Positions 7,768 through 20,250 of a stretch of 32,000 bases of DNA are shown here, piece by piece. The stretch is from Pseudidiomarina andamanensis. GTDB taxonomy: Bacteria; Pseudomonadota; Gammaproteobacteria; Enterobacterales; Alteromonadaceae. The position numbers and the translations under genes are program-made. The notes under the pieces are model-generated. The model did no database searches. It had not been told where the DNA came from and was given only the letters and a program-made list of their open reading frames with translations. The stretch lies in the NCBI RefSeq assembly GCF_009734345.1, contig NZ_CP032551.1:2040001-2072000 (forward strand), given 5' to 3'. Every line of letters starts with the position of its first letter. The stretch's first letter is position 1.

Positions 7768-8982
7768 ATGGCCAAAGGATCTTTTTTCTCGTTATTTCGC
7801 AAAAATAAGCAGAGCGATGCTGAGCAGGCATCGACAGAGAAAGACCACGAACAACACGAACAGCAGCAAGAGCCGCAACAAGAACAGCAGCTGAAACATG
7901 AATCAGTCGCGTCCGAAGCACTTCCAGAAGAGCCGTCAGTAGCCGAGGTGGCTGCGCCTGATGCCGCTGAAATTTGTGCACAAGTTACCGCCGAATCAAA
8001 AGCTGCCGAGCAAGCGAAACAACCTGAAACCCAGTCAAAGCCAAGCTTGTGGAAACGTTTAACCGCCGGGTTACGCAAAACATCGTCAGCCATTGGCGAC
8101 GGTTTGTGGGGTATTTTTAAAGACAATAAAATTGATGACGAGCTGTTTGAGGAGCTCGAAACTCAGCTCTTAACCGCCGATATTGGCGTGCCAACAACAT
8201 TGAAAATTGTCGAGCGTTTGACCGAGCAAGCGAATCGGAAACAACTCAAAGATTCCGCCGAGCTGTTTAAATTGTTGCAGCAAGACATGACGGATATTTT
8301 GTCCCCCGTGGCACAACCATTAACTATTCCAAACGACCATGAAGGCCCGTTTGTGATTCTCATGGTAGGTGTGAACGGAGTTGGTAAAACCACAACGATT
8401 GGTAAGTTAGCCCAGCAATTTAAGCGCGAAGGCAAGTCGGTGATGCTAGCGGCCGGGGATACCTTCCGTGCGGCGGCGGTTGAACAACTACAAGTGTGGG
8501 GCCAGCGTAATGACATTCCGGTGGTTGCCCAACATACAGGTGCCGATAGTGCATCAGTGATTTATGATGCGGTTGAAGCAGCCAAAGCGCGTGGTGTTGA
8601 TGTGCTGATTGCCGACACTGCAGGGCGTTTACAGAATAAAGCGCACCTGATGGACGAGCTGAAGAAAGTGGTGCGCGTGATGCGCAAGCTGGATGAACAT
8701 GCACCGCACGAAGTGATGTTAACGCTGGACGCAGGCACAGGCCAAAATGCTATAAGCCAAGCTAAGTTATTTACCGAAGCCGTTGGCGTGAGTGGTATTA
8801 CACTAACTAAACTAGATGGTACGGCGAAAGGCGGTGTAATTTTTGCTATTGCCGACCAATTTAATATTCCAATTCGCTACATTGGTGTGGGCGAGGGAAT
8901 AGACGATTTGCGACCGTTTGATGCGCAAGAATTTGTTGATGCCTTATTTCAACGCGAACTGAAAGAGACACAACCATCATGA
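7768..8982 (+). CDS. ftsY: signal recognition particle receptor FtsY
   Basis: An acidic, Q/E-rich N-terminal domain is followed by an NG domain with GVNGVGKTTTIGK, DTAGR and TKLDG motifs. ftsE and ftsX follow. Confidence 0.95.
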   Translation: MAKGSFFSLFRKNKQSDAEQASTEKDHEQHEQQQEPQQEQQLKHESVASEALPEEPSVAEVAAPDAAEICAQVTAESKAAEQAKQPETQSKPSLWKRLTAGLRKTSSAIGDGLWGIFKDNKIDDELFEELETQLLTADIGVPTTLKIVERLTEQANRKQLKDSAELFKLLQQDMTDILSPVAQPLTIPNDHEGPFVILMVGVNGVGKTTTIGKLAQQFKREGKSVMLAAGDTFRAAAVEQLQVWGQRNDIPVVAQHTGADSASVIYDAVEAAKARGVDVLIADTAGRLQNKAHLMDELKKVVRVMRKLDEHAPHEVMLTLDAGTGQNAISQAKLFTEAVGVSGITLTKLDGTAKGGVIFAIADQFNIPIRYIGVGEGIDDLRPFDAQEFVDALFQRELKETQPS

Positions 8983-9650
8983 TCAAGTTTGAGCAGGTGA
9001 GTAAAACCTATCCGGGCGGCTTTCAGGCATTGAACAATGTCAGCTTTCACTTGGAGCAGGGCGAAATGGCTTTTCTAACCGGTCATTCTGGCGCTGGTAA
9101 AAGTACCTTACTCAAGCTCATTAGTATGATGGAGCGGCCAACAGCAGGCCGTGTGATGATCAACGGTCACGATCTCAAGCGTATTCATTCGCGCCAAATT
9201 CCATATGCGCGCCGCGACATCGGCATGATTTTTCAAGATCACCGCTTGCTGATGGATAAAACCGTTTTTGATAATGTCGCGCTGCCCCTATTAATTGAAG
9301 GTTACAGCATGCAAGAAGCGCGCAAGCGCGTGCATGCTGCGCTTGAAAAAGTCGGATTGAGCGACAAAGTACGCCATTACCCAATGATGTTATCGGGCGG
9401 TGAACAGCAACGCATCGGTATTGCTCGTGCGGTTGTGAATAAGCCACCGTTGCTGTTAGCAGATGAGCCTACTGGTAACCTTGATCCAAAATTATCGATG
9501 GAAATCATTCGATTATTCGAAGATTTCAATCGAGTCGGCGTATCGGTTCTGATTGCCACGCACGATTTAGGACTCATAGCTCGTTTGCGTTATCGCACAT
9601 TGACCTTGCGCGATGGCCGTATGATTAACGATGGTTTGCAGGAGAGCTAA
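8979..9650 (+). CDS. ftsE: cell-division ABC transporter ATP-binding protein FtsE
   Basis: Walker A GHSGAGKST, the LSGGEQQR signature and Walker B LLLADEP are present. The start overlaps the ftsY stop by 4 nt. Confidence 0.95.
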   Translation: MIKFEQVSKTYPGGFQALNNVSFHLEQGEMAFLTGHSGAGKSTLLKLISMMERPTAGRVMINGHDLKRIHSRQIPYARRDIGMIFQDHRLLMDKTVFDNVALPLLIEGYSMQEARKRVHAALEKVGLSDKVRHYPMMLSGGEQQRIGIARAVVNKPPLLLADEPTGNLDPKLSMEIIRLFEDFNRVGVSVLIATHDLGLIARLRYRTLTLRDGRMINDGLQES

Positions 9651-9653
9651 GCC

Positions 9654-10634
9654 ATGAGTTTACTGTTTCGTTCTCGCCAGCAAGGCGCACAACAAGTCAA
9701 TATTTCGGGCTTTCGTCGTTTTGTCATGTTTTGGGTGCACAATCTGCAGCAAGCCGTGGCCAGTTTAGGTGAATTAGCGCGTTACCCTATGGCCAGCCTG
9801 ATGACAATGGCGGTGTTGGGTCTGAGTCTGACGCTACCAGCAACGCTTTATGTGGTGGTTAAAAATACCGAAGCCATTGGTGCTGATTGGCAACATGCTT
9901 CGGAAATTACGTTGTTTTTGCGCAAAGATTTAAGCCAACAAGAAGTGTCAACGTTTCATAAGCGTTTGAGCTTATCGAACGATATTGAGAGCGTTCGTTG
10001 GATAGACAAAAATGAAGCGTTACAAGAGTTTCGAGAAAGCTCAGGTTTCGGTGAAGCGCTTAATGCGTTAACCAATAACCCGTTGCCGGATGTGTTGTTA
10101 GTGCTACCGGTCGCCAACAAGCGCGGCACCGTTCAGGCACAACAACTGGCTCAGCAACTGCGTAATGAACGTGAGGTTGAGCAAGTACGACTTGATTTAG
10201 ATTGGCTGCAGCGCCTCGAGGCCTTATTGAACTTAGTGCGCGATGGTTTGTTAGCACTAGCAGCGTTACTGTGTATTGCGGTGGTGCTGATTGTAGGTAA
10301 CACCATTCGCCTGAATATTAATAGCAAGCGCGATGAAATTATGGTGATGAAGCTGGTTGGTGCAACCGACGGTTATATCCAACGTCCATTTTTGTATACC
10401 GGTGTTTGGTACGGTTTTGTTGGTGGATTGATCGCGTGGCTTGCAACGGCCGTAATGATTTTATGGATTTCTGGCGCCGTTGCTGACATTAGTGAATTGT
10501 ATGAAAGCCAGTTTGCCTTAGTTGGGCTAACGTTTAATGAAATGTTGGTGTTATGGCTACTGGCAATCGGCTTAGGATTACTTGGTTCCTATATTGCGGT
10601 AAGAAAACACGTTCGTACCATTGAACCGCAATAA
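9654..10634 (+). CDS. ftsX: cell-division ABC transporter permease FtsX
   Basis: 326 aa with 4-TM FtsX topology, located directly after ftsE. Confidence 0.9.
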   Translation: MSLLFRSRQQGAQQVNISGFRRFVMFWVHNLQQAVASLGELARYPMASLMTMAVLGLSLTLPATLYVVVKNTEAIGADWQHASEITLFLRKDLSQQEVSTFHKRLSLSNDIESVRWIDKNEALQEFRESSGFGEALNALTNNPLPDVLLVLPVANKRGTVQAQQLAQQLRNEREVEQVRLDLDWLQRLEALLNLVRDGLLALAALLCIAVVLIVGNTIRLNINSKRDEIMVMKLVGATDGYIQRPFLYTGVWYGFVGGLIAWLATAVMILWISGAVADISELYESQFALVGLTFNEMLVLWLLAIGLGLLGSYIAVRKHVRTIEPQ

Positions 10635-10686
10635 TCTATCCCCATATGGGTAAAATAGGTGATCAAAATTCATCCCAAAGCAGTCA

Positions 10687-10714
10687 TTGTCAGCAGCGTC
10701 AATTTTGCTAGAAT
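10687..10714 (+). promoter_or_regulatory. candidate sigma-70 promoter for rpoH
   Basis: TTGTCA (10687-10692), a 16-nt spacer, then TAGAAT (10709-10714). Confidence 0.45.
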
Positions 10715-10718
10715 GAGG

Positions 10719-10746
10719 GAACTATTAGACCCTAAAGTGGTCTGAG
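10719..10746 (+). promoter_or_regulatory. sigma-E (RpoE)-type promoter for rpoH, equivalent to E. coli rpoH P3
   Basis: GAACTA, a 16-nt spacer ending in GG, then TCTGAG. As I recall it, E. coli P3 reads GAACTT-N16-TCTGAT with the same GG before TCTGA. Confidence 0.65.
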
Positions 10747-10796
10747 TAGTGTCTGGATAATGTTGTGCGGACACCAGTGAGAGAGGATGTTGTTGC

Positions 10797-11663
10797 ATGA
10801 GCTCTGAAATTACTAGTATGGCATTAGCTGTTCCACAGTCGAGTGGCAGCTTAGAGGCGTACATTTCGACAGTGAACCGCATTCCTATGTTATCGGCAGA
10901 GGAAGAGCGCGAGCTGGCGACACGCTTGCAGGAACAGGACGACTTAGAAGCTGCTCGTCAGCTGATCATGTCGCACCTGCGCTTTGTCGTACATGTTGCC
11001 CGCAGCTACTCAGGCTATGGTCTGCCTCAAGCGGACTTAATTCAAGAAGGTAACATTGGTCTCATGAAAGCGGTACGTCGTTTCGACCCTGCGGTTGGCG
11101 TGCGCTTAGTATCGTTTGCGGTACATTGGATCAAAGCTGAAATTCATGAATATGTGCTGAAAAACTGGCGCATGGTCAAAATTGCAACCACCAAAGCGCA
11201 ACGTAAATTGTTCTTCAACTTGCGTAAAATGAAGAAGCGTTTAGGTTGGTTCACCAACGAAGAAGTGAATACCGTTGCCGAGACGTTGGGTGTAAGCACC
11301 AACGAAGTATTGGAAATGGAAGCGCGCATGAGCGCGTATGATCAAGCATTCGAATTGAGCTCGGACGATGATGATGCGAAAGATAATAGCACCTATTCGC
11401 CAGCACAATATCTTGAGGACAAACGCTCAGACTTAGCTGAAGAAGTGGAAAATGAGCAGTGGGAAAACCACACGCAACGCCGCTTATTGTCAGCCATCAA
11501 TACACTCGATGAGCGCAGCCAAGATATCGTACGTGCACGTTGGTTAGACGAAGAAAATAAAACCACGCTACAAGAACTCGCTGATAAATATCAGGTTTCT
11601 GCTGAGCGGGTACGTCAGCTCGAAGCGAATGCCATGAAGAAACTACGCATGGCAATGTCTTAA
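10797..11663 (+). CDS. rpoH: RNA polymerase sigma-32 heat-shock factor
   Basis: The RpoH box [13 protein letters not shown] is present, along with sigma-70 regions 2 and 4. The gene follows ftsX as in E. coli. Confidence 0.95.
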
Positions 11664-11680
11664 AGAAAACACACTAACAC

Positions 11681-11710
11681 AAAAACGCCGGCTTCATCGC
11701 CGGCGTTTTT
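11681..11710. terminator. bidirectional rho-independent terminator after rpoH
   Basis: AAAAA-CGCCGGC-ttcatc-GCCGGCG-TTTTT: a 7-bp GC stem flanked by an A5 run and a T5 run. Confidence 0.85.
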
Positions 11711-11730
11711 ATTTGGTTGGTAATTAGTTC

Positions 11731-11806
11731 TTAGTTCCACCACACCAGCGTTATGGGAACTTCACCACCGGTATATTCAAACTCAACACTGACTAAACCA
11801 CCATTG
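11731..11806 (-). pseudogene. displaced 3' remnant (last 24 codons plus stop) of the lipoprotein gene found intact at 13465-14028
   Basis: The - strand translates to NGGLVSVEFEYTGGEVPITLVWWN*, versus SGGLVSVEFEYTGSEVPITLVWWN* in the intact gene. Confidence 0.85.
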
Positions 11807-11913
11807 ACTACCATGGAAATAGGTTTCTGGATGCAGGAATTAAATGCTTCTGAAAAACTAGGTCTGAAATTAAGTAATTACCTATCGATTTCTATAGAGT
11901 ATCGTATTTGATA

Positions 11914-11942
11914 TTGACTTCAGCTTTAAATGTTACTAATTT
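11914..11942 (+). promoter_or_regulatory. candidate sigma-70 promoter for the island genes
   Basis: TTGACT (11914-11919), a 17-nt spacer, then TAATTT (11937-11942). Confidence 0.4.
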
Positions 11943-12004
11943 GTAAATGCGAAATGGAAAAGGGATGTATTTTGCGCTTCTACCACTACAAAGGAACGTC
12001 ATCA

Positions 12005-12547
12005 ATGAAGAATTTCTCTTTTACATTTACGTTGCTCCTCTTATTTACCCTATTCTCTACCGATGCAATAGCTGGAGATGAAGCCAACAAACTGAGTTTA
12101 TGGCACAAACAAGTTTCAGCATCGACAGCTTTAATAAAGTCAGAGAATCAACTGAGTATTTTAGAAACACACCCCATTTGGAATGAGCTCTCCAGTTATG
12201 CTCAGAGCGAATTTAGATCTAGCCTTACATTCAATGATAAAGGCTTAACAACATTTAATTTTGGAGTTCTAGAAGAAGAGCTGACAGTATCAAAAATTTA
12301 TAATTTACTTTCACTCTTTGGCCAACAAGCCTATGCAAGTTTTATGGTGAACGCTCGAGTTGAGACCGATGCTGATGTATTAATTTTGAATAGACCAATG
12401 TTAAATCAAAGAGAAGAGCGACCAAATAACTATAATGACACGAATATTTCGATTATGGTTCTTCTGGGAGAGCGTATGCATTATAGATGCTCTGAACGCG
12501 CTACATGTAGTCCAAGTGAAAACGATATCTGTACCCACAACTGTTAA
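12005..12547 (+). CDS. hypothetical secreted protein with a C-terminal 4-cysteine tail
   Basis: The ATG at 12005 is preceded by AGGA 9 nt upstream. The signal peptide is MKNFSFTFTLLLLFTLFSTDAIA|GDE. The last 19 residues read C-x5-C-x7-C-x3-C, and the final residue is Cys. I recognise no family. Confidence 0.6.
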   Translation: MKNFSFTFTLLLLFTLFSTDAIAGDEANKLSLWHKQVSASTALIKSENQLSILETHPIWNELSSYAQSEFRSSLTFNDKGLTTFNFGVLEEELTVSKIYNLLSLFGQQAYASFMVNARVETDADVLILNRPMLNQREERPNNYNDTNISIMVLLGERMHYRCSERATCSPSENDICTHNC

Positions 12548-12554
12548 TTCTGAA

Positions 12555-12587
12555 TCAGTCACTAGGAGGATCGGACCTAGTGACTGA
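12555..12587 (+). other. perfect 12-bp-stem hairpin between the two island genes
   Basis: TCAGTCACTAGG - aggatcgga - CCTAGTGACTGA. There is no following T-run. GGGGG (a possible RBS) and the ATG of the next gene follow. Confidence 0.6.
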
Positions 12588-12607
12588 GCTGAAAGGGGGT
12601 TGTACCT

Positions 12608-13399
12608 ATGCTCTTATCAGGAATGTGGATCAGCGTTATATTAATTAGCTTACCTCCGCATATAGACACCTCTTGTAGTGCGCCCCAAAATATTTTAGAT
12701 CAGGCAAGAGAAATAGATAAAGAGCACAGCAAACTGACGACCACGAAAGACGGTGTGCTTGTCGATAATAGAGGCCCAAACTTTTCTCGCTTTGCGAACG
12801 ATTGTTTGAACGACTTTTTTAAGAGAGATGAAGAAAAATACAACGAAAAACAAAAGCATTTGATTTTTAGTGCAGTTTCTAAAACTTACTTTTACTCTCG
12901 AGATAAAAATCTTTTAAAAGAATATAAAACCTACTTAAATACGTCAGGAAATGAGTATCCACCAGGAAAAAAGTACATCCAGGAAAATCTTGTTCAATTT
13001 CGGGGAAGGGAGTTAACAGGGCGAAAAATAATTTCAAGCGACGGGTCGTTGACAGATTTTACCGAACAAAATGTAATACTAATTATCTCATCACCTTATT
13101 GTGAAAATTCAAAAGATTTAAAACAGTGGATTTCACGAGAATTGCCTAATATTTCAACGAATATAATATGGGCCGTACGAAGACCTATAGGGATGAGTAT
13201 TGACGAGTTTCAAATGAATAGAGATTATACAAACTATTCTTTGTTATTAAATAGCTCAGATTGGGACGATATTGGGGTATGGGATACTCCAACAGTCTTA
13301 CATGTTCAGAATGGTAAAGTGATTCGGCAACAAGTTGGGAATCTTCCGGAAACCAAAAAATACTTGAAAGAATACGAAGAGTTTCAGGTCGCAAACTAA
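12608..13399 (+). CDS. hypothetical signal-anchored protein with a C-terminal TlpA/ResA-like thioredoxin fold and a CxxS motif
   Basis: The N-terminus is hydrophobic (MLLSGMWISVILISL). The C-terminal half matches the redoxin layout: ELTGRKIISSDGSLTDFTEQNVILIISSPYCENS (CENS in place of CxxC) and a cis-Pro loop, GVWDTPTVLHVQNGKV. Confidence 0.5.
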   Translation: MLLSGMWISVILISLPPHIDTSCSAPQNILDQAREIDKEHSKLTTTKDGVLVDNRGPNFSRFANDCLNDFFKRDEEKYNEKQKHLIFSAVSKTYFYSRDKNLLKEYKTYLNTSGNEYPPGKKYIQENLVQFRGRELTGRKIISSDGSLTDFTEQNVILIISSPYCENSKDLKQWISRELPNISTNIIWAVRRPIGMSIDEFQMNRDYTNYSLLLNSSDWDDIGVWDTPTVLHVQNGKVIRQQVGNLPETKKYLKEYEEFQVAN

Positions 13400-13424
13400 G
13401 ACCCGGATTGTAACTTCCCAAAAT

Positions 13425-13540
13425 ACAAAAACGCCAGCTTTTTTATTTGCTTGGTAATTAGTTCTTAGTTCCACCACACCAGCGTGATGGGAACTTCACT
13501 ACCAGTATATTCAAACTCAACACTGACTAAACCACCACTG
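13425..13540. repeat. right copy of the ~120-bp direct repeat (degraded terminator plus the functional 3' end of the lipoprotein gene)
   Basis: See the left copy. This copy lacks 12 nt of the terminator hairpin, reading AAAAACGCCAGC-TTTTTT. Confidence 0.9.
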
Positions 13541-14028
13541 TCAGCTATTGCGACAAGGCCATCGCAGTCGACGTTTTCAGCACACAGAAAGTCATACTGG
13601 TAAAATGCATATACGCCTGCCGTTTGCTCGTTGGCGGTGAATGGATTACCTTCTAGCGTTACTTCGTTGTACACGTAGCTTGTGCCAATTGCGTCGGGTT
13701 GTGAACTAATCACTTCGACGAGCTCGATAGATGTCGCACTGCCATCAGCGACATTACCCGTATCGACATCTTTTTCAATAACGCGTAATTCATACGATGT
13801 GCCGAATTGATGCTCGAAACCAACAATACTATCAGCAAACATTTCACGACCACTGTCAGATGTCGCGGTTGCGGCCAAAGCCGGTGTGAATTGAATGCCC
13901 AATCCATAATAGACCGGCGCCGACTCAACGGAGACATTAAACTCAGTCCCTTCGTCAGAGTCACTCGAACCGCCACAACCCATCAAAGTTGCCGTCATTA
14001 GAATGGAAAAAATAGTTTTAATTTTCAT
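13465..14028 (-). CDS. hypothetical lipoprotein, last gene of the gpmM-envC-yibQ operon
   Basis: 187 aa with signal peptide and lipobox LMGC. The start overlaps the yibQ stop by 11 nt. Confidence 0.6.
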   Translation of the reverse strand: MKIKTIFSILMTATLMGCGGSSDSDEGTEFNVSVESAPVYYGLGIQFTPALAATATSDSGREMFADSIVGFEHQFGTSYELRVIEKDVDTGNVADGSATSIELVEVISSQPDAIGTSYVYNEVTLEGNPFTANEQTAGVYAFYQYDFLCAENVDCDGLVAIADSGGLVSVEFEYTGSEVPITLVWWN

Positions 14029-14842
14029 TTGGGTAGACGTCCTTTCTGTTTATAAATTCCTTTGGAATCGCTTTGTGTTCGGTGAGTTGAATCGTTTCCG
14101 TATCGGGGCGTTGAGCTAAGGATGAGGCGACAACAAGTTTGACGCCATAGTGGCGTTCAATATCGGGCAGAACTTCTTTTAGAAACTCAAGTGTGGAACG
14201 GTGCGGATGCGCAATAGCAATCGCTTCGCCGTGTTTGTGTGCATGACGAATCAGATCTTTCCAGCGCAACGCAATTTCGGCAGGTTCTGGATTGTTGTCT
14301 AGAAAAACGTGACGTCGTGCAACTGGAATACCGAACTCGCGGGCGACATTTTCGGCTTGCGTAGCCGCGGTTGTGCGGCTGTCGAGAAAGTAGAAATTAC
14401 GCAGGGCAAGTTGTTCCATCACCCATTGCATTGGCTCAATCAAAGCCGTTAGACGGCTCCCCATATGATTATTCATGCCAACCGCTTGCGGTATCTGAAT
14501 AAAGGCTTGCTCCATCAGCAGAATGGTTTCGGCTTTATCATCTTCGGATGACAACATACCAGCACCAGCGTCGGCATTCGCCGATGCCTGCATGGGCATG
14601 TGAATAATCACTTCTTTACCGTTTTGTTGCGCGGTTTGCGCGATTTGTTCGGCATAAGGTGTGTGTGGCAACATGGCGAGCGTTAGCGGGCCTGGAAGTT
14701 GGGCAAACTGCTGCTGGAATCGGCTATTCCCAAGATCATCAATCACAATCGCGATACGTGGCAACACCTGCTCAGCCGCTGTGGTAGCGGGAGCGAGTAA
14801 CAAAACTGCTGCGATGATCACAATTTTAACTAACGTCGTCAT
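14018..14842 (-). CDS. yibQ: divergent polysaccharide deacetylase family protein (YibQ)
   Basis: The RIAIVIDDLGNS motif is present. The gene lies downstream of envC, as in E. coli. Confidence 0.8.
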   Translation of the reverse strand: MTTLVKIVIIAAVLLLAPATTAAEQVLPRIAIVIDDLGNSRFQQQFAQLPGPLTLAMLPHTPYAEQIAQTAQQNGKEVIIHMPMQASANADAGAGMLSSEDDKAETILLMEQAFIQIPQAVGMNNHMGSRLTALIEPMQWVMEQLALRNFYFLDSRTTAATQAENVAREFGIPVARRHVFLDNNPEPAEIALRWKDLIRHAHKHGEAIAIAHPHRSTLEFLKEVLPDIERHYGVKLVVASSLAQRPDTETIQLTEHKAIPKEFINRKDVYPNEN

Positions 14843-15976
14843 TTAGCGACACCAATTGACAGGGTTGACCGCGTCACCTTTGACGCGAATTTCAAAATAT
14901 ACCGCAGGATCTTCAACACCACCACTCTGACCAACTAACGCAATTGTTTCGTTGGCTCTCACAACGTCACCTTCGGCTGGCAAAATCGTCTGGTTATGCC
15001 CATATAGACTCATATAACCGTCACCGTGGTCAAGCACAATCACTAAACCGTAGCCGCGTAACCAGTTGGCAAAAAGCACGCGACCGTCGGCAATTGCTTT
15101 GACGGAGTCGCCTGCATCAGCTTTGATCACCACACCTTTCCAGGTGACGCCACCGCTGCGCTGACGGCCAAACAAACGCTCAACTTTACCATCGGCTGGC
15201 CAACTCATTTTGCCTTTGCGCTCGGTCAAACCGGCGAGGCGAGGCTCATCGCGTTGTGCTGCTCGAATTGCGGCAAGTACTTGTTCCAAAGCTTCCTGGT
15301 TGTCGCGTAATTCTTGAATACGTTTTTGGTCTGCCGATTGTTCACGTTGCAGTCGCTTAACCAATTGCTGCTGATCGGCTTGTTGCGCTTTTAAAACACC
15401 TTGTTGCTGGCGTTGTTGCTGTTCGCGTTGCGCCAGTTGCTGTTGTTGATCGGCAACGTCGGCCTGCACCTGTGTCAGCTGCTCTTGCGTGACGCGAATA
15501 TCATCTAGCTCTTGCAATCGAGCCCGATTCAAATAGCCGTAATAGCCAAGCAAACGTTCGAATTTGGCTGGTTCTTGCTGTTTTAGAATGAGCTTTAAGT
15601 AATCGTGCTCACCCATGCGATAAGCCATGTCGAGCTGCTTTTCGAGCAACTTTCGCTGATCATTGAGCTGTGCGGTGAGCTCTTGTTCTTGTTGCTGAAG
15701 ATCGTTGATACGACCGCGAATATCGGCGAGACGTTGTTGGGTTGCGTTGAGCTCGCTCGCGACCGTTGCCATTTGTTGTTCTAACTGGCGCAGTTCGCGC
15801 TCAGTAATGCTTAAGCGTTCTGCGCGTTGTCCAATGGCGGCTTCGCGTTTTCTCAGCTCTTCGGCAATTTGTGCTAACTGGGCTTCAGTTGCCGCCTGTT
15901 CTTGTGCACTTGGCTGTTGCCCCCAGCTCACTGGCGACAACAGCAGAATCATGAGTGCAGCAAGTGCGCGCATCAC
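14843..15976 (-). CDS. envC: murein hydrolase activator EnvC (coiled coil plus LytM/M23 domain)
   Basis: A signal peptide and a long Q/E-rich coiled coil are followed by a C-terminal LytM domain ([19 protein letters not shown]...[14 protein letters not shown]). Confidence 0.9.
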
Positions 15977-17508
15977 GACGTCAACGTCACAATTGGCGTG
16001 CCAGTCATTTCGGCCGGCTGCTCAAGACCGAGCAAGTGCAACATGGTTGGTGCAACATCAGACAAAGTACCGCCTTCGCGTGCCGTAGCGTCACGCCCGA
16101 CGTAAATAAATGGTACAAGTTCGCTCGTATGAGCCGTGTGAGACTGACCGGTAGTGTGATCTTGCATTTGTTCGGCGTTACCATGGTCTGCAGTAATCAG
16201 ACATTCGCCGCCAACCTCTTGCAAAGCTTCAATAACACGAGCAATGGAGCGATCAACGGCCTCAACGGCTTTCACTGCGGCGTCAAAATTACCGGTGTGG
16301 CCAACCATATCGCCATTCGGGTAGTTACAAATAATCACGTCAAACTCGCGCTGACGAATCGCTTCAACAAGAGCGTCGGTTAATTGCTCTGAACTCATTT
16401 CTGGCTGTAAATCGTAGGTCGCGACATTTGGCGATGGAATCAAAACGCGTTTCTCACCATCAAATTCTTCTTCACGACCGCCACTGAAGAAGAACGTCAC
16501 GTGGGCATACTTCTCGGTTTCAGAAATGCGGAGTTGACTATAGTCATTCTTGGCGAGCCATTCACCAAGCACGTTGGTGAGACTTTCTGGCGGATACGCA
16601 ATCGGGCCTTTTAAGTCAGCCGCATATTCGGTGAGCATGACAAAGGCTGATAATTGCGGCACGTGACCACGTTCGAAACCGTTAAACTTTTTATCTAAAA
16701 ATGCATGGCTCAGTTCACGCGCTCTGTCGGCACGGAAGTTCATAAAGAACACGCTATCGCCATCTTGTATTGGTGCAGCGTCACCAATCAATGTTGGTTT
16801 CACGAATTCGTCGCTTTCGTCACGTTCGTAAGCGTTTGCTAATGCGATACTGGCGCTATCAGCTTGGTATGGCGTTTGTGCCCGCACCAAAGCTTTCCAG
16901 GCTTGCTCAACACGGTCCCAACGCTTATCGCGGTCCATGGCAAAGTAACGACCACAAAGCGTGGCAAAGCGGCCAACGCCGAGTTGCATGAACTGTTTTT
17001 CGAAACGCTCAATCGTTGCTGCGGCCGAACGCGGTGGCGTATCGCGGCCGTCAAGAAAGCCATGGACATAGATATGCTTCGCACCACGTTGAGCAGCAAG
17101 TTCAACCATCGCTAATAAATGATCTTCATGGCTGTGCACACCACCTGGCGACAACAAGCCCATGATGTGAACGGCTTTGCCTGCCGATACAGCCGCATCA
17201 ACGCCTTCAGTTAACGCCGAATTTGTGAAGAAATCGCCATCAGCAATCGCTCTACTAATACGCGTAAAATCTTGATAAACCACTCGGCCAGCACCTAAAT
17301 TGACGTGACCTACCTCTGAGTTGCCCATTTGACCGTCAGGTAATCCAACCGCCATGCCTGAACCATCAATTAACGTATGTGGTCGAGTGGCCCAAAGTTT
17401 ATCCATGGTTGGCGTATTGGCTGCGGCAATGGCGTTATCTTCAGCGGCTTCACGATGACCCCAACCATCTAAAATCAATAGGGCTAACGGTGTATGTGGC
17501 TTGGCCAT
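15973..17508 (-). CDS. gpmM: 2,3-bisphosphoglycerate-independent phosphoglycerate mutase
   Basis: 511 aa. The N-terminus LLILDGWG, the NSEVGH motif and the TADHGNAE motif are present. Confidence 0.95.
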
Positions 17509-17678
17509 GACTTCCTCAGTGGTTTTTTAGTAAATTCAAAAAATTGAACTTATTTTATGCGATTTTGTAGCGTAACGCATCCTTTCTAACCTGCGTTTCG
17601 TGGCAAATTTTACTGGCAACGTGCGTTGCAGTCGGTATACTCTGTGCCTTGTTTTTTTCAATTGGAGTAGGCAACCCC

Positions 17679-18107
17679 ATGGATCAACTTCTCGCTTTCG
17701 CGATGGACCACTACTTTATGAGCCTGTTGTGGGTCATCCTTCTGATCGCGATAATTGTCAGTTATGTGAAAGGCGCAACCTCAAAAGTTAAATTGTTAGA
17801 GCCACAACAAGCCACTTTGTTGGTCAATCGAAACGACGGTGTGTTTGTTGATATTCGTTCAGTGGACGAGTACCGTAAAGGCCACATTCAAGACGCACTT
17901 CATGTGACTGCCGACAAGATTCGAAAAAATGAGGTGCAGGCTCTTGAGAAATTCAAATCTGCCCCCATCGTGGTTGTATGTGCAACAGGAATGACTGCGC
18001 GTTCAGCAGCAGCTTCGCTTAGCAAAGCTGGATTTGAGAATGTTGCCGTACTTCAAGGTGGAATCTCAGCCTGGCAGGGCGCCAGTTTCCCACTGGTTAA
18101 AAAATAA
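17679..18107 (+). CDS. yibN: rhodanese-domain inner-membrane protein (YibN-like)
   Basis: An N-terminal TM helix is followed by a rhodanese domain with the active-site loop VVVCATGMTAR. The ATG at 17679 has GGAG 11 nt upstream; the track start at 17649 is a TTG. The gene is divergent from gpmM and upstream of secB, as in E. coli. Confidence 0.75.
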   Translation: MDQLLAFAMDHYFMSLLWVILLIAIIVSYVKGATSKVKLLEPQQATLLVNRNDGVFVDIRSVDEYRKGHIQDALHVTADKIRKNEVQALEKFKSAPIVVVCATGMTARSAAASLSKAGFENVAVLQGGISAWQGASFPLVKK

Positions 18108-18140
18108 TAAGTGTAACTTTCAGTAATAGGACGTATTAAA

Positions 18141-18641
18141 ATGGCTGACGAACAGCAAGTAAACGGCGCCGATCAAAGTGAAGCGCAACAGCAACAAGCT
18201 TTCCAAATTCAACGCATTTACACCAAAGACGTTTCATTTGAAGCGCCAAATGCACCAGAAGTTTTCCGTCAAGAATGGAAACCTGAATTGAGCTTAGATT
18301 TGAACGTGAAAAACACCAAAATTGATGACGGTGTTTATGAAGTTGTTCTTAAAGTAACTGCTACCAACAAAATTGGTGAAACGGTTGCATTCATTGGTGA
18401 AGTTCACCAAGCAGGTATCTTCTCAGTTTCTGATGCCCTTGAAGAAGGTCAACGTGCGCATTTGTTAGGCGCTTTCTGCCCGAACATTTTGTTCCCATAT
18501 GCACGTGAGTGCTTATCAAGCTTGGTTAGCCGTGCAACGTTCCCACAATTGAACTTAGCACCAGTTAACTTTGATGCGGTATTCGCACAACACGTTCAAC
18601 AACAGCAACAGCAGCAACAAGCTGCCCAAGCTGACGCGTAA
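18141..18641 (+). CDS. secB: protein-export chaperone SecB
   Basis: The [19 protein letters not shown] hallmark is present, and the size and position upstream of gpsA fit. Confidence 0.95.
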
Positions 18642-18655
18642 TATCAGCGCAATCT

Positions 18656-19657
18656 ATGCGTAATTCGCAAGTAACAGTGCTAGGCGCCGGTTCTTATGGA
18701 ACTGCCCTAGCACTTTGTTTTGCTCGCAAGGGCACACAAACCTGTTTATGGGGCCGTGACGTCGAACAAATCGAAGCCATGGCGAAAACCCGCGAGAACA
18801 CGCGTTACCTTCCTGGTATTCAACTTCCTGACACGCTCCATGTAACCGCTGATTTAGCGGAGGCTGTCGCCGACTGCAAAAATATTGTGGTGGTGGTGCC
18901 GAGCAGTGCGTTTGCACAAGTGTTGAAAGACATGCAGCCAAACTTGCTACCAGATGCTCGTGTCGCATGGGCAACCAAAGGCTTAGAACCAGAAACTGGC
19001 CGCTTACTGTTTGAGGTGGCGCAAGAAATTCTTGGCGATTCACACGCTCTGGCAGTGTTGTCTGGGCCCACTTTCGCGATGGAAATGGCCAAAGGGTTAC
19101 CTACGGCAATTTCGATGTCATCTACCGACCCGCAGTTTGTTGAAGAACTCTCTGAACTACTGCATTGCGACCGCAGCTTCCGTGTATACACCAATGACGA
19201 CTTTATTGGCGTACAGCTTGGCGGCGCAGTTAAAAACGTGATTGCGATTGGTGCAGGTATGGCTGATGGTATCGGTTTTGGCGCAAACGCGCGTACGGCA
19301 CTAATTACGCGTGGTTTGGCAGAGCTGACGCGACTTGGCTTAAAACTTGGTGCGAAGCCAGAAACCTTTACCGGCATGGCTGGGCTAGGGGATTTGATTC
19401 TCACTTGTACCGATAATCAATCGCGCAATCGTCGCTTTGGTCTTGCCTTAGGGCAGGGCAAGTCGGTTGAGCAAGCGATGAAGGAAATTGGCCAAGCTGT
19501 AGAAGGATATCGCAATACGCGTGAAGTGGTTGCGTTGGCAAAGCGGCATGGTGTGGAAATGCCAATTTGTGAGCAGCTTTACGATGTCTTGTATGGTGAT
19601 ACCACGCCTCAGCAAGCTGCAATTAACTTGCTGAGCCGGGCACGAACTTCTGAATAG
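18656..19657 (+). CDS. gpsA: NAD(P)H-dependent glycerol-3-phosphate dehydrogenase
   Basis: The [10 protein letters not shown] Rossmann motif and the LGDLILTCT...SRN motif are present. Confidence 0.95.
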
Positions 19658-19665
19658 TTGTTCCG

Positions 19666-20250
19666 TTAGCTGAGTAACTGTTGTGCAATGGTTTGCCATT
19701 GCTCATCAAAGTGCTCAGTTGGCGAACGCTTGAACTCTGAGCGAACGAATTGGGTGATTTTGCCATCGGCATAAGCCATGACTAAGTTCGCTAACATGCC
19801 TTCATCTAAACCGCCTCTGACTTGCTCACGTAAACGGCGTTCACGCAATACTTGCTTCAGATTGGCTTCTACTTTTTCAAAAATACCAAGTACGCGACCG
19901 CGTAAACGTTCGTGTTCGCCAAGCAATGCGTCTCCGGTAAGGATGCGCGTAATGCCTGGGTTACGCGCAACGAAGGTGAGCACTAAACGAACAATCATTT
20001 CACAACGGGTGGCAGTGTCTTTTTCGTTCTCAAGAATCTGATTAATGCGCGACAAAATGGCGTCTTCGGTGAAATCAATCAACCCTTCAAACATCTTCGC
20101 TTTTGATGGAAAGTGACGATACAGTGCGGCTTCGGATACACCCACTTCGCTGGCTAAACGAGCGGTGGTAATGCGCTGTCCAGGGCTGGTTTCTAACATG
20201 GTTGCTAGGGCAGCTAGTATTTCTTGTTTACGGTCTTGTTTCGCGGCCAC
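19666..20250 (-). CDS. slmA: nucleoid occlusion factor SlmA (TetR family)
   Basis: The sequence [14 protein letters not shown]...[24 protein letters not shown] (helix-turn-helix) matches. The GTG start has GGAG 6 nt upstream. The gene lies downstream of coaBC. Confidence 0.85.

Follow-up and report, generated by a model that had tools for sequence, protein, structure and literature searches.

A small foreign islet flanked by two copies of its target between rpoH and a lipoprotein gene of Pseudidiomarina andamanensis

Cis-mobilizable elements (CIMEs) are described in Firmicutes. They are decayed remnants left by integrative and conjugative elements (ICEs) or integrative and mobilizable elements (IMEs), which keep the attachment sites attL and attR without the genes for integration and transfer, and an att-flanked remnant without recombination genes is a CIME by definition (PMC5704250). 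On transformation, a linear donor can also trigger duplications by interchromatid integration (Johnston et al. 2013, PMC3784515), and for orphan modules of type VI secretion systems (T6SS), Rhs proteins and contact-dependent inhibition (CDI) systems a homology-facilitated illegitimate recombination which displaces ancestral gene ends has been proposed (PMC5361080). In this paper we concentrate on an islet of 1.6 kb with two genes, which lies between rpoH and the gene of a DUF4377 lipoprotein in Pseudidiomarina andamanensis. It is part of a stretch of 32,000 nucleotides (contig NZ_CP032551.1, positions 2,040,001 to 2,072,000), which is called the window here and to which all positions refer.

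The islet resembles a CIME in its short cargo, in the direct repeats which include the target gene's 3' end, in the lack of a recombinase and in the fact that the repeat on the side of the gene restores this gene. However, a cognate integrase or parent element is not known for it, its repeats, about 130 bp long, consist of ordinary target sequence in which neither core nor arm sites can be recognised, neither an accretion partner nor a second occupant of the site was found, and its host is a gammaproteobacterium. With the Campbell-type insertion-duplication of suicide plasmids it shares flanking repeats as long as the homologous patch, a displaced resident allele, an incoming allele joined to the gene and a divergence restricted to the patch, whereas replicon or vector functions are missing and a natural source of a 1.75-kb circle is not evident. 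A linear donor with permuted homologous ends can likewise yield a duplication around the donor junction without a dedicated recombinase, but the duplications described there comprise 100-900 kb, are bounded by copies of insertion sequences and come from a Gram-positive bacterium (PMC3784515), while the one studied here would have 131 bp. As in the orphan modules, foreign DNA has been inserted next to a conserved gene, of which an orphaned 3' fragment remains downstream (PMC5361080). The orphan of the islet, however, duplicates the same 3' end and is not an alternative one, the presumed anchor contains no donor-type tract, the cargo is encoded on the other strand, and by no test that was run does it represent an effector/immunity pair.

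The cargo itself (11807-13421, + strand, 1,615 bp) is foreign DNA which was probably acquired horizontally. Its GC content is 36.6% in comparison to 49.1% in the rest of the window, so the AT-richness which a first-pass annotation, made from the sequence alone, had counted by hand is borne out by computation. Windowed GC and tetranucleotide usage, which had been proposed as checks, both deviate (for GC, z = -7.4 relative to every other segment of 1,615 nt; for the tetranucleotide distance, z = 12.5), and the GC content at third codon positions (GC3) is 0.32-0.34 in the cargo genes versus 0.44-0.51 in their neighbours.

The insertion is genuine and varies between strains. The empty site for which a search had been suggested, namely rpoH followed by only one terminator and by the lipoprotein gene, with the repeat in one copy, was found in P. 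marina PIM1 (L001, flanks ~93% identical), in a third lineage (L022-L027, flanks ~87%) and in the two contigs L021 and L035, which are ~2% diverged from the window (~98% identity); the cargo is missing in all of them. Because L021 and L035 as well as the more distant relatives have empty sites, the insertion is recent and variable at or just below the species level. The first-pass annotation had also reckoned with the case that all close relatives carry the insertion and that the cargo is of native composition; neither was found.

All cargo-bearing contigs show identical junctions, and the cargo is present only in P. andamanensis and only at this site. Among 5.8 billion proteins the close relatives of the two cargo proteins are solely copies of at least 99% identity from P. 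andamanensis. A scan of metagenome DNA recovered the cargo from the same lineage only, and no match was obtained in plasmid, phage and IMG/VR collections (the latter searched by DNA and by protein). Many metagenome contigs are 1,664-1,771 nt long, and those of 1,704-1,771 nt with overlapping ends (L005-L012, L032) were considered as excised circles and rejected. They begin and end within the repeats, at k-mers common to both copies, so these circular-looking contigs represent assembly breaks or graph collapse.

A repeat search of the window identified an ungapped direct repeat of 109 nt (11698-11806 and 13432-13540) with 94% identity, and a further match of 19 nt between the same copies (11676-11694 and 13422-13440). 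Both are merged by a gapped alignment into a left copy of 131 nt (11676-11806), in the following called H, and a right copy of 119 nt (13422-13540), called H', from which 12 nt (TCATCGCCGGCG) of a terminator hairpin are missing. For the 96-nt core which had been noticed before (11711-11806 and 13445-13540) exactly the five reported mismatches were counted (11716/13450, 11752/13486, 11766/13500, 11770/13504 and 11804/13538, left/right). The alignment also agrees with the sharp end of the homology at 11806 and 13540, and ACAAAAACGCC[G/A]GC precedes each copy as claimed. No third copy, for which a search had been suggested, exists within the 32-kb window.

Each repeat comprises the rpoH terminator together with the stop codon and the 24 final codons of the lipoprotein gene, in line with the first reading. 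In H, the resident copy of the target, the intrinsic terminator (11681-11710) is intact and bidirectional with a 12-bp stem according to terminator scan and folding (-24.9 kcal/mol on the + strand and -25.9 on the - strand; z = -5.7). To its right lies an orphan 3' fragment of the DUF4377 lipoprotein gene (11731-11806, - strand), whose translation, GGLVSVEFEYTGGEVPITLVWWN and the stop, represents the last 24 codons and matches the C-terminus of lipoprotein orthologues. H' is the diverged copy and gives the lipoprotein gene its functional 3' end; its terminator no longer folds, the hairpin being destroyed by the 12-nt deletion.

The alleles of both copies were compared between strains with and without the cargo. 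T11752 and T11804 in the left copy and A13436 in the right copy are specific to the strain of the window and its closest relative. In its ancestral state (G at 11752 and C at 11804, found in L032 and further strains), the left copy agrees with the single copy of L021 and L035 at each of its 131 nt, so that the number of fixed differences between carriers and these empty sites is 0/131 nt on the left. In the right copy, all carriers have T13424, C13450, T13500 (synonymous) and A13504 (Gly to Ser). Three of these alleles (T13424, T13500 and A13504) were detected in no non-carrier lineage, while C13450 is also found in L022-type lineages. Fixed differences number three in the 96 nt of 13445-13540 versus one in the 1,660 nt of 13541-15200 (Fisher p = 0.0006), and inside the lipoprotein gene 2/76 in the repeat part versus 0/488 in the remainder (p = 0.018). 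Directly to the right of 13540 the window is identical to L021 over 116 nt (13541-13656).

The 12-nt hairpin deletion (window 13436-13445) is polymorphic among the carriers. One of them, L011 (1646-1678), still contains the full hairpin next to sequence specific to the cargo, and the end of L012 coincides with the branch point. Because L011 has the hairpin, the deletion is later than the insertion, and the original duplication had ~131 nt with the whole terminator. Carriers with the deletion possess no hairpin terminator between the second cargo gene and the convergent lipoprotein gene. All changes in H and H' but one are GC-to-AT. The element now looks static and decaying, as the H' hairpin is lost in most strains, strain-specific GC-to-AT changes occur in both repeats and the first cargo gene is little constrained.

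We give about an even chance to the explanation that the islet was integrated by a single, Campbell-type crossover and carried a target copy of its own. The displaced repeat has the resident allele, the repeat next to the gene would have the incoming one, and the divergence is found within the patch. It is this combination, a displaced copy of resident type and a diverged copy joined to the gene with a divergence that stops at the repeat boundary, which favours a single crossover between H and H'; divergence ending at the junction is expected if H' was the sole homology available for the crossover. The incoming unit would have had ~1,746 bp, that is the cargo plus its own ~131-bp target copy H' with the bidirectional terminator and the last 24 lipoprotein codons. 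H' would stem from a closely related lineage and, as we infer, arrived together with the cargo. The entry point would be the 3' end of the DUF4377 lipoprotein gene on the P. andamanensis chromosome, and the crossover between incoming H' and resident H would have taken place inside the 36-nt identical block at the junction (13505-13540), which is among the two longest uninterrupted blocks of identity between the copies. The product would be rpoH, resident H with the orphan gene end, which still terminates rpoH, the cargo, imported H' and the body of the lipoprotein gene. Both neighbouring functions would survive, and this is probably the reason why the configuration persisted.

The crossover could have been catalysed by host RecA acting on a circular molecule or one with permuted ends, or by an integrase which acted in trans or has since been lost. 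An allele pattern as observed is expected alike for attL and attR at a gene 3' end, for a RecA-dependent Campbell circle of ~1,746 bp and for the interchromatid integration of a permuted-end linear donor (PMC3784515). The first-pass annotation had proposed site-specific integration into the 3' end of the gene (attL/attR) or a Campbell crossover. The allele pattern, the empty sites and the foreign insert fit this proposal; an integrase remnant was not found.

Several points weigh against a single crossover with an imported H'. A donor with H' or the cargo in another context was not found, the islet contains no integrase, integrase remnant or arm-type repeats, and none of the relatives retrieved has another element at this site. 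The first association of cargo and H' needs an illegitimate event which is itself unexplained. The numbers of single-nucleotide polymorphisms (SNPs) are small (4 vs 0), and frequent exchange with empty-site strains could homogenise the flanks, spare the sequence beside the heterology and in this way inflate the contrast.

The strongest competitor, although in our view rather unlikely, is a duplicative illegitimate insertion in situ, in which non-homologous DNA was caught at a break or a stalled fork and the 131-bp target was copied twice in one event. Fill-in of widely staggered ends or a template switch similar to microhomology-mediated break-induced replication (MMBIR) could lead to this, and the two copies would have been identical first and diverged later. 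Such a process takes a single event and requires no prior association of cargo and H'. The left boundary of the duplication (11676-11680) lies at the base of the palindromic terminator with its 12-bp stem, a plausible point of stalling or cleavage. H' is of the andamanensis/marina type and not of the L022 type and thus comes from this clade, the prevalence of GC-to-AT changes fits decay in place, and neither a recombinase nor a donor was found. However, all four fixed differences are located in H', and H is free of them although most of it is a fragment without function. The contrast between 3/96 in H' and 1/1660 past the junction (p = 0.0006) is also difficult to reconcile with error-prone repair synthesis, which is not expected to halt exactly at 13540. 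Finally, we know of no documented case where bacterial end joining produced duplications of more than 100 bp around a captured fragment, which counts against this explanation as well.

A special case of the favoured single-crossover integration is a CIME in the strict sense, a larger, now decayed tyrosine-recombinase island specific for this gene end, of which an internal deletion has left two cargo genes and both att sites. Repeats with the 3' end of the target gene, where the copy on the side of the element restores the gene, are the classic signature of such islands, the definition of CIMEs fits the anatomy of the locus (PMC5704250), and the asymmetry of the alleles is the same as in the general case. 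We nevertheless regard a decayed island as distinctly unlikely. Beside the repeats there are only 198 nt (left) and 22 nt (right) of non-coding DNA and no integrase fragment, no intact or decayed relative was found at this site or near the DUF4377 paralogues in other Pseudidiomarina/Idiomarina loci, and viral, plasmid or phage matches are lacking.

Two steps instead of one are assumed by the next explanation, which we consider very unlikely. Here the cargo was first inserted at one boundary, where it truncated the lipoprotein gene or parted rpoH from its terminator, and the damage was later patched from a related strain by homology-facilitated illegitimate recombination with one homologous anchor and one illegitimate joint, so that the target copies come from two strains. 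Recombination of this kind with displacement of the ancestral downstream part is a proposed route to orphan ends (PMC5361080), homologous exchange is rampant at the locus, and the differing alleles of the copies as well as the intact flanking functions are accounted for. With an anchor in the gene body, however, donor-type divergence is expected past 13540, and no such tract was found to the right of this position: the 13541-13656 segment shows 0 differences to L021 and only one fixed difference occurs in 1,660 nt. Two rare events are required, and the intermediate, cargo with a single repeat, is seen in none of about 10 carrier contigs.

An ancestral arrangement, from which the empty sites arose through deletion by recombination between the repeats, is hardly credible: repeats of 119-131 bp permit deletion and the empty sites of L021 and L035 could be secondary losses, but the cargo has a foreign composition (z = -7.4 and 12.5), both of its genes are confined to one species, and three other lineages are empty and do not have the H' allele (save C13450 in the L022-type).

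Three further origins were considered and ruled out. A single foreign tract made up of cargo, right repeat and 3' half of the lipoprotein gene had been suggested by an identity of only ~86% to P. marina; L021 shows, however, that the gene body is native, with 116 identical nt past the junction. An import of rpoH together with the cargo, suggested by a divergent block at 10950-11630, was dismissed since it is L021 which is recombinant there, and L035 shares only 11570-11627. H' also does not come from a DUF4377 paralogue, for the homology of the paralogues stops at the stop codon and they are without H' alleles.

To assign the islet to a class of elements we looked for the characters by which these classes are defined. 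The absence of an integrase, a transposase, terminal inverted repeats and a tRNA, as stated by the first-pass annotation, was confirmed by scans of the window. None of the large open reading frames (ORFs) of the 32 kb contains a recombinase domain, no tRNA is encoded at the locus, Rfam gave no match and the cargo ends bear no terminal inverted repeats. The islet is not an insertion sequence or transposon, as a transposase domain and terminal inverted repeats are missing and the duplication is 131 bp instead of 2-15 bp. It also does not qualify as an integron cassette, with no integrase or array in the window, no inverted repeat at its ends and no match in Rfam; attC was not specifically modelled. 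As in CIMEs and islands, the two repeats (11676-11806 and 13422-13540) stand in the place of attL and attR and include the target gene's 3' end. The use of one att site by several elements was not seen in our limited sampling: none of the relatives retrieved (L001, L021-L027, L035) has a different cargo at the same junction, as the first-pass annotation had suggested to look for. The islet is best filed as a small, now-static genomic islet without recombinase, bounded by a duplicated target. In a literature search no published description of this locus was found.

There is no sign of present or past mobility, be it autonomous or in trans. A mobile cassette moved in trans, which had been offered as one possibility, is not supported, given the restriction of the cargo to one species and one site and the lack of plasmid, phage and viral matches, and an uncharacterised insertion mechanism, another possibility named at that time, is not required by the data. 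It is highly doubtful that the 1.75-kb unit is a minimal enzyme-free cassette which spreads between strains only by host homologous recombination. If it were, RecA-dependent excision between the repeats would free a circle, whose patch would allow re-entry into naive genomes by a single crossover, and as the patch rebuilds both the rpoH terminator and the lipoprotein gene, the integration would be without cost for the host.

The two co-oriented ORFs which had been recognised in the insertion are both on the + strand, ORF1 at 12005-12547 and ORF2 at 12608-13399. Of the promoter proposed upstream of ORF1, the motif TTGACT-17-TAATTT is present (11915-11943, + strand), but it has a weak -10 element and stays below the threshold of a consensus scan, and may at best be called promoter-like. 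ORF1 encodes an orphan protein of 180 aa (QGT96431, hypothetical protein) with an N-terminus like a signal peptide and four C-terminal cysteines; it has no match in Pfam, NCBIfam, PADLOC, PHROG or PDB. A tblastn search with both ORFs found nothing, either in any of the loci retrieved or elsewhere in the window.

ORF2 encodes a protein of 263 aa with a predicted thioredoxin fold, an SSPYCxxS motif (C165, S168) and a TP cis-proline motif. A search of 1.84 billion representative proteins yielded eight full-length, distant homologues (25-37% identity), and in the nine aligned sequences the SSPYCxxS motif with C165-x-x-S168 and the T227-P228 pair are invariant. The N-terminal domain of this family is helical with conserved cysteines. 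An AlphaFold2 model built on the homologue alignment reached a predicted local distance difference test score (pLDDT) of 83, while a single-sequence model (pLDDT 35) was set aside. With the former, Foldseek gave a probability of 1.0 to Etrx, TlpA and DsbE structures, with peroxiredoxin folds among the top matches. The C-terminal domain resembles extracytoplasmic thioredoxin-fold proteins such as Etrx1/2, FetE, DsbE-like proteins and peroxiredoxins. The Pfam profile Thioredoxin_2 matches the ORF2 homologues only below threshold. Fold, CxxS motif and cis-proline loop together, as modelled, identify ORF2 as a putative thioredoxin-fold protein, and it appears to define a small unannotated family of ~260 aa with an invariant CxxS. 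About 20 further proteins of ~300 aa match this family in the C-terminal domain only. The two homologues whose loci could be read (P0043 and P0050) are encoded in unrelated chromosomal contexts without an ORF1-like neighbour and without mobile-element context.

Over nine strain variants, the SNP density is 8/280 nt in the non-coding cargo, 7/543 in ORF1 and 4/792 in ORF2, and the polymorphisms in ORF1 are 7 nonsynonymous and 0 synonymous. From these counts ORF2 looks constrained and ORF1 hardly. In one variant (L032) the substitution P163S alters the proline of the SSPYC motif of ORF2. It is plausible that both genes form a small envelope operon, with a predicted secreted disulfide/cysteine protein and a dedicated periplasmic monothiol partner of the thioredoxin fold.

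The gene order at the locus is ftsE, ftsX, rpoH, the insert, the DUF4377 lipoprotein gene, a gene for a YibQ-type deacetylase, envC and gpmI. The left neighbour rpoH (10797-11663, + strand) encodes sigma-32 in an ORF of 288 aa; the domains Sigma70_r1_2, r2 and r4 are listed for the identical rpoH gene in L006. The target gene on the right (13465-14028, - strand) is intact and encodes a lipoprotein of 187 aa (Pfam DUF4377, E = 5e-8), which is 99% identical to P0042, the protein encoded at the empty site of L021. The window is 100% identical to GCA_031624335.1, and the annotation of its proteins names Pseudidiomarina andamanensis.

In comparison with P. marina PIM1, positions 8000-20000 are a mosaic, in which stretches of 81-90% identity lie between blocks of 98-100% (e.g. 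9640-10440 and 17530-17730), a sign of frequent homologous recombination between species across this conserved region. The rpoH segment of L021 (window 10950-11630) shares 96.8% identity with the L022/L023 lineage and only 91% with the window, and L035 has a short patch of the same L022-type rpoH allele (window 11570-11627). This L022-type tract in rpoH stops ~50 nt before the repeat. In L022 (L022:5233-5742; JGI 3300005882) the DUF4377 gene and a deacetylase gene shortened to 260 aa are separated by an additional ORF of 169 aa without Pfam match; therefore the other side of the lipoprotein gene is also a spot for insertions and deletions.

DUF4377 paralogues are encoded elsewhere in this group of organisms. 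Where they occur in P. gelatinasegens, P. marina and I. abyssalis, the loci lack an integrase and show no homology to that part of the repeat which holds the terminator. The paralogues P0003 and P0006 (P. gelatinasegens) and P0036 (P. marina; L033:5001-5573) have near-identical C-terminal halves and different N-terminal halves, a distribution of similarity which suggests gene conversion. They are located in variable DNA, together with RHS-repeat and astacin genes (L033) or small hypothetical genes (L013-L016), and downstream of the L033 copy AT-rich DNA (37% GC) is found.

As it stands, the insertion is an ordinary genomic islet. It is a clean natural case of very small foreign DNA which was fixed beside the essential regulator rpoH without damage, since the duplication of the target preserved both the rpoH terminator and the full frame of the lipoprotein. 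Its history is unusually readable, because presence and absence can be compared among ~98%-identical strains and the strain variants record successive decay. The cargo contributes one small uncharacterised thioredoxin-fold family with a CxxS motif and one orphan protein predicted to be secreted. If the unit were able to excise and re-integrate via its homology patch alone, it would illustrate gene mobility without a recombinase.

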